Source of the DNA: Octopus vulgaris
Lineage: Eukaryota
Direction: 5' to 3'
DNA length: 64,000 bases
NCBI GenBank assembly: GCA_951406725.2
Contig: OX597819.1
Location: 10,726,001-10,790,000, forward strand
In this document: piece by piece, positions 14,030 to 62,170 of the stretch
Layout: each line of letters starts with the position of its first letter
Numbering within the stretch: the first letter of the stretch is position 1
The notes under the pieces: model-generated
Told to the model about the DNA's origin: nothing
The model's database searches: none
What the model saw: the letters and a program-made list of their open reading frames with translations, nothing else
Position numbers and translations under genes: made by a program

Positions 14030-15340
14030 GCAATACCGGCGAAACAAATTATTTAGAACTGACCAAAAAAAAGATTTTATCAAAAGATTAATGACGGTAA
14101 AAAATGTGAAATATTAGACCCTGATGCTGATGAAAGTCAACATTTCTGGGGTAAGATATGGAGTAAGCAAGAACAGCATTATGTTGAATGGCTCTGCAGC
14201 CGGAAGCAAACAGCTTCTTATCCCCAGCAAGAGGTTATCCACTTCACAAAAGACAGTATCAAAAATGTGACTAAAAAGATAAGAAATTGAAAAATAGCAG
14301 GACCTGATGGTGTACAGGAATTTTGGATAAAAAAAAAGTTCAGTAGTTACTATAAATTGATCACAGAGCAATTTAATGCATTGATCAATGGAGATGAAGA
14401 AATCCTAGGCTGATTGACAAAAGGACAAACAAAGTGTTGTGTCTGAAGAATGCATCAAAGGGAAATGCTGCTGGCAATTACAGGCCAATTTCTTGCCTCC
14501 CATTAATGTAGATGTTACTGTCAGGAGGAATTGCAGAAGATCTGCACAAATTTCTTGATGAGAACAATATTTTACCTATGTAACAAAAAGGCTATAGATG
14601 GAGATGCAGAGGTACCAAAGATCAATTATTGATGGACAAAATGGTAATGCAAGATTGTAAATGAAGGAGAATACATTTGGAAATGGCCTGGATTGACAAT
14701 CACAAAGCTTGTGACAGGATTCTACATTCATGGATCATTGAGTGCTTAGATCTGTTTGGAATTGCGAGGAATGTAACGTGTTTCATGAAGAGAAGTATGG
14801 TGGGGTGGAAAACTGAACTGACATCTTATGGAAAAAGCTTGGGCACCCTGGATATCAGAAAAGGGATTTTCCAGGGTGATAGCTATCTCCATTGCTTTTT
14901 GTTCTCTGCATGACACCCCTGACCTTGGTACTTAGGAAAATGAACCTAGAGTATCAACTAAAGGGAAAATCCCAAACAATCAACCATCTCCTCTTCATGG
15001 ATGATTTGAAATTGTATGGCAAGGATGAGACACAAGTGAGTTCCTTGGTGAAGGCAATCCACTGTTTTAGTGCTGATATTAGAATGGAATTTGGACTTAA
15101 ATTTGTACCTAAAGAGAGGCAAGGTACAGTCTCTGGCGGGGACAGAACTTCCGAACAGCGACTTGATGAAACAAATTGAAACAGAAGGCTAAAAAATACC
15201 TTGGTTTACTAGAGTTCAAAGAGATAATGGAGAAGGAACTGAAAGAGCAACTGAGGATGGTATATTTCCAAAGACTAAGGTTGGAGTTGCACTCAAAATT
15301 GACTGGGTGGAATAAAATCCAAGCAGTTAATAGAAGAGCA
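14030..15340 (+). pseudogene. Decayed non-LTR retrotransposon RT (R4/Dong-like)
   Basis: ORF fragments MAWIDNHKACDRILHSWIIECL, IRKGIFQGDS and INHLLFMDDLKLYGK...DIRMEFGLK correspond to RT motifs; multiple stops and frameshifts. Confidence 0.85.
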
Positions 15341-16560: not shown

Positions 16561-16899
16561 TATAGGTGCAGTGTAACTGTGAAATAAGCTTGTTTCCCAA
16601 TCACATGGTTCCGGGTTCAGTCAATTTGTTCGACTAAATAAATAAATATATATATATAAGACTAATCAAATTTACGTTGTCAAATGTATTTGAAGAGTTA
16701 GAAACTGGTCCTGCATTATCCGATTCTAGGTTGTCCATTTATTGAATGTTCTTCCTAGAGGTAAGATAAATTTTTTTTTATGTTTGTTGCACACACATGT
16801 CTTTGCTTGGATATACGCAGTGAAGCTATGCAATAGCGTCGTTTTTATATCAACTGCTATTTTCCAGTAAATATTGGTGCCTTGTTGTACCATTTATCT

Positions 16900-16938
<39 letters not shown>

Positions 16939-17113
16939 GTTTAAATATTTGTTGTGCAAGATTTTTTATGTGAAGTCGTGTGTTGAAACAGATATTGTTA
17001 TATTTCGGAATGGTCATATTGCCAGTTTAGCCAATAAAAACACACGCACTATATATTTGGTGTTATTTTGCTTCAGTGATATTTATTTTTTACATTAATC
17101 TTAATCTTATTTC

Positions 17114-17158
17114 GGCCAAAGTTCTTTCGTCACACTCCTGTGACCGCATCAGTGGTCC
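17114..17158 (-). ncRNA. Minimal type-I hammerhead-like motif in the Penelope 3' terminal region (left copy)
   Basis: Minus strand GGACCA-CTGATGCG-GTCACA-ggag-TGTGAC-GAAA-G-aa-C-TT-TGGCC; perfect 6-bp stem II, but core A9 is C. Confidence 0.5.
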
Positions 17159-17681
17159 TTTGTTTTCTTCTCACTTACTTGTGTCTCTCCTTACTAACCG
17201 TCAGCCATTTTGTATTTCTATTGTATGTCTTCATTTGCGCATGCTTATATCTCTATGTGCGTCTATGTTTATTTAGTGTGTGTGTGGGGGGGATGCCTGT
17301 AATATTTGTATCTTCTGGTTATATACATTCTTGTAATTTGTATTTTGTTTTTGTTGTTGTTGCTTTTGTTCTAATTTTATTCATGTGTTTACATCCACCC
17401 ATTATTATCATTACATATGCTTGTATGTATGTATAACAACAATATTAGTAATAATAATAATAAATCTAATCGAGAAAAAAAAAAAAAAAAAAGAATATAC
17501 ATATACATATATATATATACATACATATACATATACATATATATATATATATATATACATATATACACACATATATACACATATACATATACATATATAT
17601 ACACATATACATATATATAGATATTCATTTCTATTTCTTTAATTACCTGTGTATTTATTATGTTTGCAGGATCCACTATTG

Positions 17682-20041
17682 TCATATGTTGTGGTGTGCG
17701 CTATTGCTCCATTCTAGTTTTCTATTCAGGCTAGGTTTATTTTCTATTATATGTGTAGCTTCTGTAATTTGTCTAATTGTTGCATCTGTTCTATGTGTGG
17801 ACAATATCTTAATCTCTATGTTATTGATTGATCCCCCGTGTTCTTGTTCGGCGTGTTGGTACAGAATCGATGAGCTTTTACCTTCCTTGAGTTGTCTCCA
17901 ATGTTCATTCACCCGCTCACCAATGCTTCTTGCAGTTTCCCCTACGTATGTTACTGTCTTGTTACTGCATCGTCCCTCTATACATCTTATACTATAGACC
18001 ACATTTCTGGCTTTACAGTTCGTTTGTGGGCTAAATCTACATACAGTGCAATAGTTATCCGTACAGAGAGTTCTACTAAAAGGATAGGTTCTACCAATTA
18101 TAGATCTGATAGGGTTGCCTGGCTTTTCAACAACCTTAATTCTTAGTTTAAGTTTATCTAGGGTCCTTCTAAAGCGGTACGCTAGTTCACCTCCAGGGGT
18201 GGTGTCAACGAACATGACACTCTGGTATTTATGGCTATCATACCAAGAGTTGGCCTTCCTTATTTTCTTTTTGTCCTTTCTATAGTGTTCCATGACTTGT
18301 TCCTATAGAGTGGGCAAATCCCATTCCTATCATTACATAATATATTATCAAATTTCTTCATGGCTCCTTTGTATACTCTGATCCTTTCTTTATGGCTGTA
18401 ACCTGAGAACTGCATGCGGTGAATGAAATACCGTATGTGTCTCTTTAATTCTGTAGGCTCGCACATGCGTGACACATTTCTCATTATTCTGACGAGGTCT
18501 GCCATCAAAATATTGAATTTGGCATTGCCCGCAATGGCTGAGTTCCGGTGGATCAGGTATTTTGAGGCCATAGGTTTTGCATAGTATGAATGAAGGATTT
18601 GGGTTTTATTTTTCACAATTTCTAGCCAGAGTTCAGTGTCTAGTACTGGTAGTCTATGGTTGGGGTGTTTAGTGGGGTAGTCTATTGTGACCTTAATACT
18701 CTGGTGGATGGAGTTAGCTATTTGCTGGATGCTCTCCATAGTATTAGTTTCTATTACTATATCAACAGTACTTTCTTGTGGGGGTGCCTTTACTACTATA
18801 TTGATATCATCAACATAGCGAGAGTACATGTTTACTAGTATGGATTTCTGCAGTAGGCATTCTTTAAGCCTTCTGTCCCACCATACCATGAAGAGGTTGG
18901 CCACATCACCAGCGATACTAACACCGATGGCTGCCCCCTCGTCCTGGGCATATATTTTATTATTAAATTTAAATGTGTGGCCTTTTAGGGTAACTCTTAT
19001 ACTAGCTCCTAGTGCATGTGCGATCATTTTCTTTACCTGATGGACATTTGCGGGGCTCCGTATGGCTCTGGTCCATCCGCGCCATCTTTCTATATGTGTC
19101 TTCCTAGCCATAGAAGTAATTGTAGGCGGTCTACCTCTTAAACATCTACTGGGGCAGAAACTACTAAGATTATGTTTATCTAAGTATTCACTATTATATG
19201 TCAGTCTAAGTAGGAGGCCCAGTTCTTCTGTGTCGACATTACAGAACTCCACCTGGCTCTCGTTGATCATCTCCACGCACTTCTCCACTGCAAAATCTAC
19301 GTCAATCGATGGGTATAGGGATACCACATCCATGCTACCTACTATACATCCTGTCAAGTCACAAGTTTTGTTACAGTCACTGATCCTGCTTAGGAGATCT
19401 TCTGTGCTGTCACATACATCAGGTGACATCCTGATTATAGGGCGTATGATCATTGAGAGGAAGTAGGAGATTCTGTAATTGCTAGCGATATTCGCTCCAC
19501 AGACTGGTCTTGTTGGTGGTCCTGCTATAGGGTCAGTAAAACCTTTATGGTCCTTGCGAAGTCCATACAGTGCCGGGATATCATTGTTCCAGGCTTGGAA
19601 ATTCTTTGCAGTACGTTTCTGAGGTCCCAGAACAATTGTCCACATCATCATGTGGGCATTGAGGACCTTTTCTCTCTCCTCATGCGCCTGTACAGTTGTT
19701 ACTTTTGTATTGGCGATATGAGGTTGCATTGCCTGGATGTAGTTCGGTAAGCTGTCTATTGACATCCTGCCGGACTTATCCGTGGGAAGGCATATCACCT
19801 CTCCGTTCCTCGTGCGCTGAATGAGCTTCTGTAGGCCACATGCAGGTTTAATCCCTAGTTGTTGGGCATCTGTCTTATTCTGTCTCTGTCTCTTAATGTA
19901 TAAACCTAAAATCTGTCTAAGTTTGGTCCTAGCTATAGTGAACTGTGCTTCCATGTGGTCATTAGTACGTCTTGGGATGTATACCCTTTTGTTGAAGGGT
20001 AATGTTGTTGGATAAATTCGGTTCTTCAACGTATGCGACAA
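17682..20041 (-). pseudogene. Penelope-like RT-GIY-YIG ORF, left copy, with a 1-nt frameshift near 18270
   Basis: ORFs 18260-20041 ([37 protein letters not shown]) and 17682-18293 (NVVYSIRC...YVGET...ER..EH) are joined by the loss of one A relative to the right copy (5 vs 6 A in GGACAAAAAAG). Confidence 0.9.
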
Positions 20042-20410
20042 AACTTACTGCATGAACCGAACTACTGCATGAACTAGGGATTAAACCTGCATGTGGCCTA
20101 CAGAAGCTCATTCAGCGCACGAGGAACGGAGAGGTGATATGCCTTCCCACGGATAAGTCCGGCAGGATGTCAATAGACAGCTTTCTAGGGTTATCTTCAT
20201 TATCGTTACTGTTTCCAACATCAGCCTTCCTATTATTATTATCAGAAACGTACTGCAAAGAATTTCCAAGCCTGGAACAATGATATCCCGGCACTGTATG
20301 GACTTCGCAAGGACCATAAAGGTTTTACTGACCCTATAGCAGGACCACCAACAAGACCAGTCTGTGGAGCGAATATCGCTAGCAATTACAGAATCTCCTA
20401 CTTCCTCTCA

Positions 20411-22183
20411 ATGATCATACGCCCTATAATCAGGATGTCACCTGATGTATGTGACAGCACAGAAGATCTCCTAAGCAGGATCAGTGACTGTAACAAAACT
20501 TGTGACTTGACAGGATGTATAGTAGGTAGCATGGATGTGGTATCCCTATACCCATCGATTGACGTAGATTTTGCAGTGGAGAAGTGCGTGGAGATGATCA
20601 ACGAGAGCCAGGTGGAGTTCTGTAATGTCGACACAGAAGAACTGGGCCTCCTACTTAGACTGACATATAATAGTGAATACTTAGATAAACATAATCTTAG
20701 TAGTTTCTGCCCCAGTAGATGTTTAAGAGGTAGACCGCCTACAATTACTTCTATGGCTAGGAAGACACATATAGAAAGATGGCGCGGATGGACCAGAGCC
20801 ATACGGAGCCCCGCAAATGTCCATCAGGTAAAGAAAATGATCGCACATGCACTAGGAGCTAGTATAAGAGTTACCCTAAAAGGCCACACATTTAAATTTA
20901 ATAATAAAATATATGCCCAGGACGAGGGGGCAGCCATCGGTGTTAGTATCGCTGGTGATGTGGCCAACCTCTTCATGGTATGGTGGGACAGAAGGCTTAA
21001 AGAATGCCTACTGCAGAAATCCATACTAGTAAACATGTACTCTCGCTATGTTGATGATATCAATATAGTAGTAAAGGCACCCCCACAAGAAAGTACTGTT
21101 GATATAGTAATAGAAACTAATACTATGGAGAGCATCCAGCAAATAGCTAACTCCATCCACCAGAGTATTAAGGTCACAATAGACTACCCCACTAAACACC
21201 CCAACCATAGACTACCAGTACTAGACACTGAACTCTGGCTAGAAATTGTGAAAAATAAAACCCAAATCCTTCATTCATACTATGCAAAACCTATGGCCTC
21301 AAAATACCTGATCCACCGGAACTCAGCCATTGCGGGCAATGCCAAATTCAATATTTTGATGGCAGACCTCGTCAGAATAATGAGAAATGTGTCACGCATG
21401 TGCGAGCCTACAGAATTAAAGAGACACATACAGTATTTCATTCACCGCATGCAGTTCTCAGGTTACAGCCATAAAGAAAGGATCAGAGTATACAAAGGAG
21501 CCATGAAGAAATTTGATAATATATTATGTAATGATAGGAATGGGATTTGCCCACTCTATAGGAACAAGTCATGGAACACTATAGAAAGGACAAAAAAGAA
21601 AATAAGGAAGGCCAACTCTTGGTATGATAGCCATAAATACCAGAGTGTCATGTTCGTTGACACCACCCCTGGAGGTGAACTAGCGTACCGCTTTAGAAGG
21701 ACCCTAGATAAACTTAAACTAAGAATTAAGGTTGTTGAAAAGCCAGGCAACCCTATCAGATCTATAATTGGTAGAACCTATCCTTTTAGTAGAACTCTCT
21801 GTACGGATAACTATTGCACTGTATGTAGATTTAGCCCACAAACGAACTGTAAAGCCAGAAATGTGGTCTATAGTATAAGATGTATAGAGGGACGATGCAG
21901 TAACAAGACAGTAACATACGTAGGGGAAACTGCAAGAAGCATTGGTGAGCGGGTGAATGAACATTGGAGACAACTCAAGGAAGGTAAAAGCTCATCGATT
22001 CTGTACCAACACGCCGAACAAGAACACGGGGGATCAATCAATAACATAGAGATTAAGATATTGTCCACACATAGAACAGATGCAACAATTAGACAAATTA
22101 CAGAAGCTACACATATAATAGAAAATAAACCTAGCCTGAATAGAAAACTAGAATGGAGCAATAGCGCACACCACAACATATGA
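20411..22183 (+). CDS. Penelope-like reverse transcriptase with C-terminal GIY-YIG endonuclease (uninterrupted 590 aa, N-terminally incomplete)
   Basis: [12 protein letters not shown] (motif A), QDEGAAIG (B), YSRYVDD (C), [13 protein letters not shown], Cys cluster CTDNYCTVC, and GIY-YIG-type NVVYSIRC...[16 protein letters not shown]...RQITEA...LN. Confidence 0.9.
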
Positions 22184-22708
22184 CAATAGTGGATCCTGCA
22201 AACATAATAAATACACAGGTAATTAAAGAAATAGAAATGAATATCTATATATATGTATATGTGTATATATATGTATATGTATATGTGTATATATGTGTGT
22301 ATATATGTATATATGTATATATATATATGTATATGTATGTGTATGTATATATATGTATATGTATATGTATATTCTTTTTTTTTTTTTTTTTTCTCGATTA
22401 GATTTATTATTATTATTACTAATATTGTTGTTATACATACATACAAGCATATGTAATGATAATAATGGGTGGATGTAAACACATGAATAAAATTAGAACA
22501 AAAGCAACAACAACAAAAACAAAATACAAATTACAAGAATGTATATAACCAGAAGATACAAATATTACAGGCATCCCCCCCACACACACACTAAATAAAC
22601 ATAGACGCACATAGAGATATAAGCATGCGCAAATGAAGACATACAATAGAAATACAAAATGGCTGACGGTTAGTAAGGAGAGACACAAGTAAGTGAGAAG
22701 AAAACAAA

Positions 22709-22753
22709 GGACCACTGATGCGGTCACAGGAGTGTGACGAAAGAACTTTGGCC
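22709..22753 (+). ncRNA. Minimal type-I hammerhead-like motif in the Penelope 3' terminal region (right copy)
   Basis: GGACCA-CTGATGCG-GTCACA-ggag-TGTGAC-GAAA-G-aa-C-TT-TGGCC; identical to the left copy. Confidence 0.5.
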
Positions 22754-22867
22754 GAAATAAGATTAAGATTAATGTAAAAAATAAATATCACTGAAGCAAA
22801 ATAACACCAAATATATAGTGCGTGTGTTTTTATTGGCTAAACTGGCAATATGACCATTCCGAAATAT

Positions 22868-22906
<39 letters not shown>

Positions 22907-22993
22907 TGAGAGAGTAACCACTATGTGGTCAACTCTAGTGCTGTGTTAAATTGATGGTATTATTAAATTAATATCAAATTTTTCACCCTCATT

Positions 22994-23071: not shown

Positions 23072-23945
23072 ATCATCATCATCCTTTAATGTCTGTTTTC
23101 CATGCTGGTATGAGTTGGACTGTTTGACTGAGGACTGGCAAGCCAGGAGGCTGCACCAGGCTCCAGTTTGATCGAGCAGTGTTTCTACTGCTGGATGCCC
23201 TTTCTAATGCCAACCACTTGCTTTTTAGTGGGTGCTTTTTAGCTAGTGGTCATACTAGCTTCATTTCTTCTCAAGCCTGCACATGTCTTCAGCACTTACA
23301 GCCCATGTTTCACTGCCGTGTAGCATAGCAGTTCGCACACATGCATCATACAGTCTACCTTTCACACTGTGCAAGAGGCCCTTTGTCACCAGTAGAGGTA
23401 GGAGCTTTTTGAACTTTGCCCAGGCTATTCTTATTCTAGTGGCAACACTCTCTGAGCATCCACCACCACTACACACTTGGTCACCTAGGTAGCAAAAGCT
23501 ATCAACAACTTCTAGTTTCTTGCCCTGCCATGTGATGGAATCAGTTTTCTGAGCATCTATTGCCCCTGTGCATATGCTGCACACAAAAGCTATCTTCCAA
23601 ATTCAACTTCCTTTGATGTTGCTGCACTTATGCGTTCATAGCTTACACTGGGTACATCTTATGGAGTTTCTACCTACCCTTTTTCTACAGATCGAGCAGG
23701 GACATCTACCTGAAGGGGTTTGTGATGTGTTCGCCTTCCTACTTACTAGGACTTTGGTTTTTACAACATTGACTCCAAGGCCCTTCCATTCTAAACCTTG
23801 CTTCCACACCTGAAATTTCTTCTCTAGTTCTGGTAGTGATTCAACTATGAGAGCAAGGTCATCAGCATAGAGGAGCTCACAGGGGCAACCTGTCTTGAAT
23901 TCCTCTTTTATTGCCTGGAGGACTATGATGAATAAAAGGGGGTTT
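23072..23945 (-). pseudogene. RTE-clade LINE fragment: RT C-terminal part plus family E 3' end
   Basis: Minus strand ELLYADDLAL (~23850-23878) and LEVVDSFCYLGD...RIRIAWAKFKKL...GRLYDACVRTAMLHGSETW (23261-23584), followed by the family E UTR and (CAT)n at 23072. Confidence 0.85.
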
Positions 23946-24147: not shown

Positions 24148-24821
24148 ACACCATTTTGTAACTCAACTGTATTGTAACTTGTGATGAAAAGTGGATTCTG
24201 TACAATAATAAAAAACTTCCTTTGCAGTGGTTGGACCAAAATGAAGCACTGAAAACCTTCCCAAGATCCAAGCTCTTCAAAAAGAAGGTTATGGTGATTG
24301 TTTGGTGGTGTGCTGATGTACTCGTCCAATATAGCTTGTTAAAACCCAGAAAAACCATTACTGCAAAATTATATTGCCATGAAATTGTCAAAATGAATGA
24401 AAAAATGCTACTTCTCCATCTCAGACTGGTCAACAGAAGAGGGCCAATCATTCTTCACAACAATGCTTGATCACATGTTTCCCTAATGATGCTCCAGAAG
24501 TTGAGTGAACTTGGCTACGAAGTTCTTCCCCACCCAGCTTATTCCCCAGACCTTTCTCATATCGACTACCACTTTTTCAAGCACCTTGACGGTTTTTTGC
24601 AAGAGGAGTTTAAAAGTCAAACTCATGCTGAAAGTGCATTCAAAGAGTTCATCGGCTCCAGAACTCTAGATTTTAATGTTATCGGAATAAACGAACTTGT
24701 AACTGGTTGGTAAAAATGCGTTGATAGTAATGGTACTTACTTTGAAGAATAAAATTTCTGCATTGTTGAAATATATTGTGATGAATTTCATGTTTCAAAA
24801 TGTTGCTTACTTTTTACTCAG

Positions 24822-56742: not shown

Positions 56743-56886
56743 ATCTATTAAAATTTCATGTTAATTTATGTTCTAAACACTAGCTTAGTAACGATAAAGC
56801 TACTCACTAAATTATTTATTACTTTCATAATTATTAAAAATTAAGAAAATGTCTTTCAACAGAAATAAGGTTACAAAAAGGTTAAA

Positions 56887-57283
56887 TCTTTATATATAAA
56901 AGTAAAGTTGTGTGTCTGTCTCCTACGATTTAGATTCCTAACTACTCCCACATTTTGCGGTGCAGTTTAACCAAAAGCGAGTATCGTATAGTCGGGATTC
57001 ATATGGAGCCCTTCTCGGTATTAGCGCGCGTCTATGATGAGTCTATGATTTTAAAAAAAATTTACCATAATTTTTTTTCATTTCAATGCATTTTTTCGCT
57101 ATTAAATAAGGGAAGTAACTCTCTAAAATGTCTACGATGAGTCAACGATTTAAAAAAAAAATTACCATAATTTTTTTTCCATTTTTAATGCATATTTTTA
57201 CTATTTTTTGGCTATAACTCTCTAAAAATGCTTATATAGTTATTTCCCTTACAAACCCTAGCAACGCCAGGCGATACTGCTAG
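56887..57283 (+). mobile_element. Non-autonomous Helitron-type element (~397 bp)
   Basis: Starts A|TC, ends CTAG|T, with a GC-rich subterminal hairpin-like segment (CCCTAGCAACGCCAGG; CCCGAGCAACGCCGGG in the other copy), no TSD and internal tandem subrepeats; second copy at 61057-61454. Confidence 0.8.
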
Positions 57284-57589
57284 TTATATATAATATATAT
57301 AGTGATATTTCATTTTTGTATTTGGTTTGCAAGATTCTTTATGTGAATTCATGTATTGAAGCATATTTTATTGTGTCTGGGGAGAGTCATTCTCATTTAG
57401 TGTCTTAACACACTCACCAATTCAATTTCCACTCATTTGCCTATTTGTTTTTCCTAAAATTTTTGTTGCATCTTGCAACCTCTTCAATAGTTGTTGACTC
57501 GGTCCGTTATCAGAGCTATGGTAGGACGTACTCTTTTGAGAATACCACATGTACCAATGATAACTCCATGGCATTTAAGATTAACCCTG

Positions 57590-60700: not shown

Positions 60701-61056
60701 GCTAGATAAAGACCAGCTGTACTAAGGCTACCTGATACACAAACAACAATAAAAAATATTCAGCTCTTTAATTCATTAATCAATTATTTCTATAGCTTTT
60801 CAGTAATGAGAAATTAAGTATCATAGCTGTTTTTTTGTTAATACAAATGCAAACCAAATGCTCTACATGTATGGTCCAAACCTACAATTGAATTGCAACT
60901 AGCTTTATACTTAGTATTTTTTCCTTCCTCCTTTTCTTTTTTAATACTAATTTCAAATTAATTTGTTAATTATAATTTGATTTAATTTTTATTCAGCATA
61001 TGTTGTGGTGCACCTGAGCACTGTATACAATAATTTCATTATTATATTATATAATA

Positions 61057-61454
61057 CTAGCAGTATCGCCCGGCGTTGCTCGGGTTTGTAAGGGAAATAA
61101 CTATATAAGCATTTTTAGAGAGTTATAGCCAAAAAATAGCAAATAAAATGCATTAAAATGGAAAAAAAAATGATGGTAAATTTTTTTTAAATCGTTGACT
61201 CATCGTAGACATTTTTAGAGAGTTACTTCCCTTATATAATAGCGAAAAAATGCATTAAAATGGAAAAAAATTATGGTAAATTATTTTTTAAATCGTAGAC
61301 TCATCGTAGACGTGTGCTAATACCCAGAAGGGCTCGATATGAATCACGACTATAAGATACCCGGTTTTGGTTAAACTGCACCGCAAAATGTGGGAGTAGT
61401 TAGGAATCTAAATCGTAGGAGACAGACACACAACTTGACTTTTATATATAAAGA
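61057..61454 (-). mobile_element. Non-autonomous Helitron-type element
   Basis: Reverse complement of 56887-57283; A|TC...CTAG|T termini on the minus strand. Confidence 0.8.
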
Positions 61455-62170
61455 TAATATTTTCTATCTTTAGAACTGTTAAATATTCTGAAATGCATTT
61501 TTACTTTTGTATTCAAAAATGTTTAATACATTTGAATTTCTATGACATCCCAGCTACACACTATCATCACTTTCTATTTTATTTGTTTCATTTAAAACTA
61601 CATTATCAGATTCAAAAGTCTTCACAGTATTTTCTTTCACGTGAATTAATATTACTTGTATTGGAAGTCATTAATCTAATTGACACAAATGGGTTTTCCC
61701 CATTTGTTTTCCTTCATATCGAAAATGGTCAGATAGATCAACAGTATTGACCTTGTCCAGTTATTTCTATCCTCTAGTGATCCACCTGTATAATCTAGTT
61801 AGTTCCACATGTCACCTGTTCTCTCCATGTTTCTATTTTCTTACCTCTCTGGCTACCTGTCTGCCTGTGTCTTGATTTTTATCTCTAATTGATTTCTGTA
61901 TTAATGCATATCTAACCTGTACAATTAATCTTTCAATTAGATTAATTTTTATAAAAAGTTTCTTTATTCATCTGACTTTCAAAAGGTTTCAATTGCATTT
62001 GAATCCTTCATTTTTTTTTTATCTTTCTGAAAGCTGATCTGGCTTTAAGGGTTAAATTATTAAATACTGTAATTCTTTCACAGAGTTTAGAAAATGTCTA
62101 TCAAGGAAAATCATTGGATTTCATAATTTCTGTCTGTGTATAACTTATCATTGTCCTTGAGATTATTATG

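Follow-up and report, generated by a model that had tools for sequence, protein, structure and literature searches.

A head-to-head pair of Penelope-like elements (PLEs) in Octopus vulgaris (assembly GCA_951406725.2) belongs to a young family whose inverted pairs follow a strict rule: the outer end of one arm carries a tail of 56 nt and the outer end of the other arm is short. The pair lies at 16904–22907 of a stretch of 64,000 nucleotides (contig OX597819.1, positions 10,726,001 to 10,790,000 of the forward strand), here called the window, and forms a hairpin. By comparing it with other insertions of the family we could show the anatomy of the pair, the rule of one tail and one short end, a haplotype shared by both arms and microhomology at the joints. 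As the best reading we suggest that both target ends probably primed on the same RNA at its two start sites, one giving the short end and the other the tail end. Papers are cited below by PMC number.

Positions in the element (u) are positions along a natural full-length copy, L035, with a unit of 4,588 nt. A short end passes from u4588 into (TA)n and a tail end does so 56 nt further on (u4644). Genome-wide, 2,436 exact short ends and 1,826 exact tail ends (1,572 + 254) enter (TA)n. We sampled the first 60 short-end sites on contig C1, the 33 tail-end sites of the same range for which no short partner was listed, 36 loci with long copies (selected independently of their ends), and 20 stretches around full-length junctions. 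The partner of the short-anchored sites was tailed in 37 cases and short in none (two unclear, 21 without partner), and the partner of the tail-anchored sites was short in 20 cases and tailed in none (two unclear, 11 without partner). The long-copy loci comprise 31 pairs of one tail and one short end, no pair of like ends and five open cases. These sets combined, minus a duplicate (L102=L044) and plus the window, give 88 pairs, and 16 further loci raise the number to 104. All 104 cleanly resolved head-to-head insertions thus combine a tail with a short end; two tails or two short ends were never found together, L169 and L173 stayed undecided and L171 is a solo copy. Given that tail ends make up 43% of the exact ends, 37 tailed partners out of 37 would be expected by chance with a probability of ~3e-14. 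When only coordinates are considered, each of the 33 divergent pairs lying within 12 kb (182 listed ends) is short plus tail. TA-rich sequence is present on both flanks in 80 of 87 pairs, and short-only inserts between TA tracts occur as well. At some sites without a partner only a few bases of the tail adjoin the TA tract; others are true solos. One pair (L045:819–5525) is inserted in (TTA)n rather than (TA)n and still has one tail and one short end.

The arms of a pair also agree in their haplotype, as tested on the 58 of the 88 pairs with at least 100 comparable sites. They differ at 89 of 48,001 positions (0.19%; shuffled 0.91%), and recurrent minor alleles are common to both arms in 76 cases and discordant in one, compared to a shuffled concordance of 9% (maximum 22%). 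In the young long set the ratio of concordant to discordant alleles is 39:1 (19% concordance when shuffled), and concordance holds regardless of which arm is longer (25:0 and 40:1). The arms in the window have two subfamily alleles and one private allele in common. These counts bear on the possibility that the two copies arrived by independent insertions into one TA tract, which the preliminary description of the window had named as the case against a single event, or arose by a later inverted duplication or conversion. TA tracts do receive repeated insertions (two separate mini-insertions in L135), and conversion may account for single alleles. Independent insertions would yield like-ended pairs and a discordance at the shuffled level, both contradicted by the counts, and no target sequence lies between the arms; we regard this origin as very improbable. 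Another alternative is two-ended priming by an asymmetric complex holding two RNA molecules of the same source locus, which would produce the rule if its subunits differ and a common haplotype if each cell has one active locus. This appears improbable to us: a variety of haplotypes is present in the young copies and still only 1 case in 40 is discordant, and the excess of identical 5′ stops is left unexplained.

This excess is seen in the simple pairs of C1: of 53, nine have arms whose 5′ stops lie no more than 6 nt apart (2.0 expected, P=5e-5). The joints overlap exactly by at least 2 nt in 33 of 48 cases (null 17%). Among the 58 joints scored, out of 87, 10 contain inserted bases, in several cases templated locally. 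In 40 of 73 simple pairs the short arm is the one that extends further 5′, by kilobases in young copies such as L043 and L066 and sometimes by 3–4.6 kb, and in 9 of 56 C1 pairs the arms have no common sequence.

Our suggestion for the reaction is as follows. The element nuclease would open both strands within (TA)n and each freed end would prime reverse transcription, one at the short site and the other at the tail site, which lies 56 nt downstream (3′) on the same RNA. Two active sites of the reverse transcriptase (RT), probably those of a dimer, would work on one tandem RNA, so that the two primers could not use the same start, and the RT on the tail side would displace the other cDNA while following behind it. 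The two antisense cDNAs would stop by dissociation or at the 5′ end of the RNA. Their 3′ ends would then anneal by 1–6 nt, in the window after several template jumps, and each would template the second strand of the other. A single event with both target ends primed and the cDNAs joined centrally had already been proposed in the preliminary description, and the family-wide counts favor this part; priming would, on the other hand, take place at two internal sites 56 nt apart and not at the RNA 3′ end as was assumed. The longer short arms, the pairs without common sequence and the short-only inserts argue for two primings. In vitro, reverse transcription of an anole PLE begins at two internal sites that bound the tail; the two strands of the target are both cut and extended, and a dimer is predicted (PMC11167929).

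Alternatively, the cDNA from the tail site (or a self-primed antisense template) could snap back and be copied to the start, whereupon a nuclease cut at the short site joins the other target end and the centers of the palindromes are later deleted. The strict rule, the shared haplotype, the nine symmetric joints and the microhomology are explained equally well by this route. In addition, self-priming on an antisense template has been proposed (PMC3846280), as has tail resolution by the nuclease (PMC8557442), and, according to PMC11167929, the D. virilis nuclease does not cleave without the tail. In its simple form without later change, the fold-back is rejected by the 40 pairs in which the short arm is the longer one. 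With later change it demands secondary one-sided deletions in these pairs, several of them of 3–4.6 kb in copies 98–99% identical to the reference, and further deletions in the nine pairs without common sequence and in the short-only inserts. Moreover, exact short ends outnumber exact tail ends, and in vitro the RT starts at either site (PMC11167929). We consider fold-back the most serious alternative but rather unlikely; hybrids between it and priming from both target ends are possible.

Several points nevertheless weigh against priming of both target ends on one RNA. All of its steps are deduced from finished insertions in one assembly. Long palindromes rearrange at their centers, and a later deletion there could turn fold-back products into asymmetric arms, joints with microhomology and non-overlapping mini-insertions. 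Fold-back, gene conversion between the arms or a single source locus in each germ cell would leave the two arms with a common haplotype as well, and alleles private to one insertion are found on both arms in 19 cases and on one arm in 107. BLAST found no partner at 32 of the 93 C1 sites; the two-ended product is common, not obligate. The pairs without common sequence comprise only seven distinct junctions, and L163/L164, where one end is short and the other stops at u4574 and continues in scrambled letters resembling the tail, are ambiguous and may be an exception to the rule. Finally, PMC11167929 reports no strand difference in the start site, and pairing within one molecule lay outside its tests.

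Some insertions carry further information on templates and stops. In L035:1701–9143 the 5′ stops are at u3187 for the short arm and, exactly a unit further on, at u3189 for the tail arm, as if both cDNAs had reached the 5′ end of a single tandem RNA and run off; the tandem of the solo copy L046 begins at u3192. About three head-to-tail units and an inverted arm are found in L048/L049 (G000:C19:14370300–14389499), suggesting long tandem or circular templates. The hot spots of 5′ stops at u4538–4546 (a T-run) and u4606–4617 (an A-run) are complementary and paired in the predicted RNA fold, and stops there yield recurrent mini-insertions of 75–90 nt (L071, L092, L103, L113, L146, L151, L179).

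The hairpin in the window (Table 1) had been described as arms 16992–19860 and 20072–22875 that are reverse complements around a 211-bp spacer. Our alignment confirms the inverted relation for 16992–19622 (−) and 20242–22875 (+), which match over 2,634 nt with 99.77% identity, three substitutions and two gaps. The relation does not continue to 19860/20072: the right arm lacks the 126 nt equivalent to 19623–19748 and has a 61-nt inverted piece there instead. The supposed spacer is element sequence, as the left arm runs on to 20024 and is followed by the pieces 20022–20061 and 20063–20074. The center is thus a patchwork in the order left arm to u1561, u1529–1568 (+), one unmatched base, u1553–1564 (+), u1725–1836 (+), u1489–1429 (−) and right arm from u1963, with 3-nt overlaps at three joints. 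Two of these pieces extend upstream of both arms, so that a template longer than either arm was present. The small differences reported between the arms were all recovered, namely an R/Q change (18432/21432), a 1-nt gap within an A-run (18272/21592) causing the frameshift of the left arm, and two substitutions and a 2-nt slip in the 3′ microsatellite. Equally, both outer ends enter (TA)n and the 5′-truncated ends point inward, the left outer end carrying the tail in addition; a target-site duplication is unreadable inside (TA)n.

Table 1. Features of the hairpin in the window
Feature	Position	Strand	Remark
(TA)17 target tract, left side	16904..16937	.	last TA common to tail end
56-nt tail, u4589–4644, runs on into start of open reading frame (ORF)	16936..16991	−	tail end, left arm only
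Left (tail) arm, u4588 down to u1561	16992..20024	−	5′-truncated, ORF frameshifted near 18272
Hammerhead-like fold, left copy (predicted)	17113..17158	−	non-canonical core; mirror of right copy
Center piece u1529–1568	20022..20061	+	3-nt overlap with left arm; extends upstream of left-arm end
12-nt templated duplication, u1553–1564	20063..20074	+	
Center piece u1725–1836, 112 nt	20072..20183	+	identical to 19749–19860 inverted
61-nt inverted piece u1489–1429	20184..20244	−	in neither arm; 3-nt overlap with right arm
Right (short) arm, u1963–4588	20242..22875	+	no tail, short end
Open, 5′-truncated ORF, ~residues 663–1309	20242..22183	+	RT core with long A–B insert, thumb, Cx4CxxC-x7-C linker (from 21800), C-terminal GIY-YIG with CCHH
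Hammerhead-like fold, right copy (predicted)	22709..22754	+	non-canonical core
(TA)n target tract, right side	22872..22907	.	first bases common to short end

A fold-back read or an assembly artefact, against which the preliminary description had advised a check, appears extremely unlikely. The flanks differ, the arms differ by the tail, three substitutions and two indels, the center contains pieces found in neither arm, and 103 other loci follow the same rule with junctions of their own; moreover, the 64,000 nt contain no N. What speaks for an artefact is that the center junction, a single occurrence genome-wide, was not seen in the contigs of four other public runs, which held every piece; this absence by itself is no proof. 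The hairpin is a normal product of its family and only its length is unusual, as a shared stem of at least 1 kb is found in 3 of 56 pairs sampled on C1 and the median is ~120 nt. Neither arm encodes the whole protein; the locus is dead and represents a known insertion layout at unusual length. A hypothetical read-through transcript would fold into a 2.6-kb stem, for which the preliminary description had suggested a role as substrate of ADAR or of small-RNA pathways. In the genomic copies a footprint of A>G editing was sought and no sense-strand excess was found (30 A>G vs 14 T>C, A share 0.65, P=0.75).

Elsewhere in the window, the left flank of the hairpin (16660–16900) is a dispersed repeat itself, and broken ORFs are found at 14883–15205, 23261–23944 and 24162–24713, which resemble LINE RT fragments and a mariner-type transposase. 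The segments 56886–57297 and 61043–61455 form an inverted pair ~4 kb apart which holds 100-bp tandem repeats and possibly represents the ends of a DNA transposon.

The earlier assignment to the PLEs is supported, as the family encodes a single ORF with a telomerase-related RT and a GIY-YIG nuclease with CCHH, which alignment motifs place as the last domain. The complete uninterrupted ORF of 1,307–1,309 amino acids is present in 10 of 56 long loci examined, the 2.8-Gb genome contains 31 exact junctions of pseudo-long terminal repeat (pLTR) and ORF, and the closest database protein, 99% identical, is from Octopus vulgaris. The alignment-based structure model reaches a predicted local distance difference test (pLDDT) score of 92.6 and its best PDB matches are telomerase RTs; a single-sequence prediction gave a pLDDT of only 34.6, and a PDB sequence search found no relative. 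In Pfam, RVT_1 matches only below the cut-off and GIY-YIG matches the query weakly (E 0.0025); 5 of 20 members match the latter, with a best E of 6.6e-07. RT motifs A and B are 128 residues apart in the query and 126–131 in 114 of 119 aligned proteins. A CxnCxxC linker is found in 108 of 109 aligned proteins having the YxG motif, the pattern of the query, Cx4CxxC-x7-C, being the commonest (67 rows among the 119), and DKS is present in 20 of 20. The long A–B insert is nearly fixed in length and conserves R302, P309, T312, R322 and W326 (numbering of the query fragment) down to 33% identity (alignment A2, P0002–P0120). For comparison, the A–B distance counted from Fig. S1 of PMC8557442 is ~57–60 residues in Penelope, Neptune and a C. 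remanei row, 81 in a Naiad and ~115 in human telomerase. Judged from these alignments, the RT fingers insert is ~70 residues longer than in canonical PLEs.

In the hammerhead-like motif of the terminal repeat, stems I and II are predicted to fold around a non-canonical core (z −1.5), and the right copy has no match to the Rfam hammerheads. A minority allele at u4461 (window 22748) gives CUC at the predicted cleavage site, where most copies have CUU. Four arm starts lie at u4458–4460 near the predicted site u4461/4462, none matching it exactly, and we do not claim hammerhead cleavage as the source of 5′ ends.

The layout and the one-sided tail are already published; what appears to be new here is the strict count of one tail and one short end. 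Neither such a count nor an RT insert of this kind was found in the literature searched; Repbase, Arkhipova 2006 and Evgen'ev and Arkhipova 2005 may hold either. Recently active Penelope families of Octopus vulgaris have been counted (PMC13282606), and the origin of inverted copies, tails and second strands of PLEs has been named an open question (PMC8557442, PMC11167929). The family offers a strict rule that can be counted in thousands of young insertions (a tail, a short end and a single haplotype per pair) and put to a direct test in the existing in vitro system, whereas the single locus in the window is ordinary by itself. The family also places a long RT fingers insert in a PLE with a C-terminal nuclease, the published work listing none for the canonical clades. 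We give about even chances to the wider proposal that integration of PLEs like these is inherently a reaction at both ends (a single RT dimer on one RNA, priming from both target strands at two fixed sites, cDNAs templating each other) and that the family forms an unnamed, widespread clade with C-terminal nuclease and telomerase-sized fingers insert. If true, such a reaction would account jointly for the tail, the inverted copy and second-strand synthesis.

Several known systems can be set beside this family. In twin priming of L1, both target ends prime on one RNA and the cDNAs are joined by microhomology. The inverted parts of L1 do not overlap and the inner primer site is variable, whereas the Octopus family has two fixed starts and arms that mostly overlap.

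More closely related are the insertions of endonuclease-containing (EN+) PLEs with an inverted 5′-truncated copy (PMC8557442, legend of Fig. 2; Pen2a of Adineta, PMC3846280). They share with our family the head-to-head orientation, pLTR partial tandems, the one-sided tail, the ATG inside the terminal repeat, the (TA)n target, an Asn-rich ORF insert and palindromic joints. In the published elements the inverted copy is frequent and the tail optional, with 30–40 bp, whereas here the tail has 56 nt, is strictly complementary between the arms (104 of 104 clean pairs) and comes with a shared haplotype. In the green anole, Poseidon_Ac (PAc; PMC11167929) likewise has two fixed ends bounding a tail just inside the ORF start and an AT-rich target; it has a hammerhead motif near the ORF start, comparable to the predicted hammerhead-like fold of the Octopus element. 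It belongs to another clade, as the Octopus element has a Zn-finger linker; the ends lie at +26/+82 from the ATG in Octopus and at +111 to +118 in PAc, and those of the Octopus element show, unlike PAc, 2–4 nt of AT/TA microhomology with the target.

Regarding the clades, the linker distinguishes the element from Penelope/Poseidon, which have no Zn-finger linker before the nuclease, and CCHH and the Cx4CxxC linker distinguish it from Hydra, which has no CCHH and a CxCX5C linker. The CX2-5CxxC linker of Neptune is present, with a spacer of 7 residues; the rows shown for Neptune have ~25 (PMC8557442, Fig. S2). The preliminary description had suggested a Naiad. Like Naiad/Chlamys, the element has an insert between RT motifs A and B, a (TA)n target and inverted insertions; we reject this assignment on the domain order, the nuclease being C-terminal here and N-terminal in Naiads (PMC8557442), and further differences are the missing Naiad motif DKA, the A–B distance (128 vs ~81 residues) and the hammerhead-like fold. 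With Nematis it shares the C-terminal GIY-YIG with CCHH and the CX2-5CxxC linker with the 7-residue spacer to the next Cys (PMC8557442, Fig. S2). It departs from Nematis and the canonical PLEs, which lack an insertion between motifs A and B, by the A–B distance of 128 residues vs ~57–60, and from Nematis also by DKS instead of DKG and by an ORF of 1,309 residues. Judged by motifs and spacing, the element thus appears to be a PLE with a C-terminal nuclease and a Nematis-type linker.

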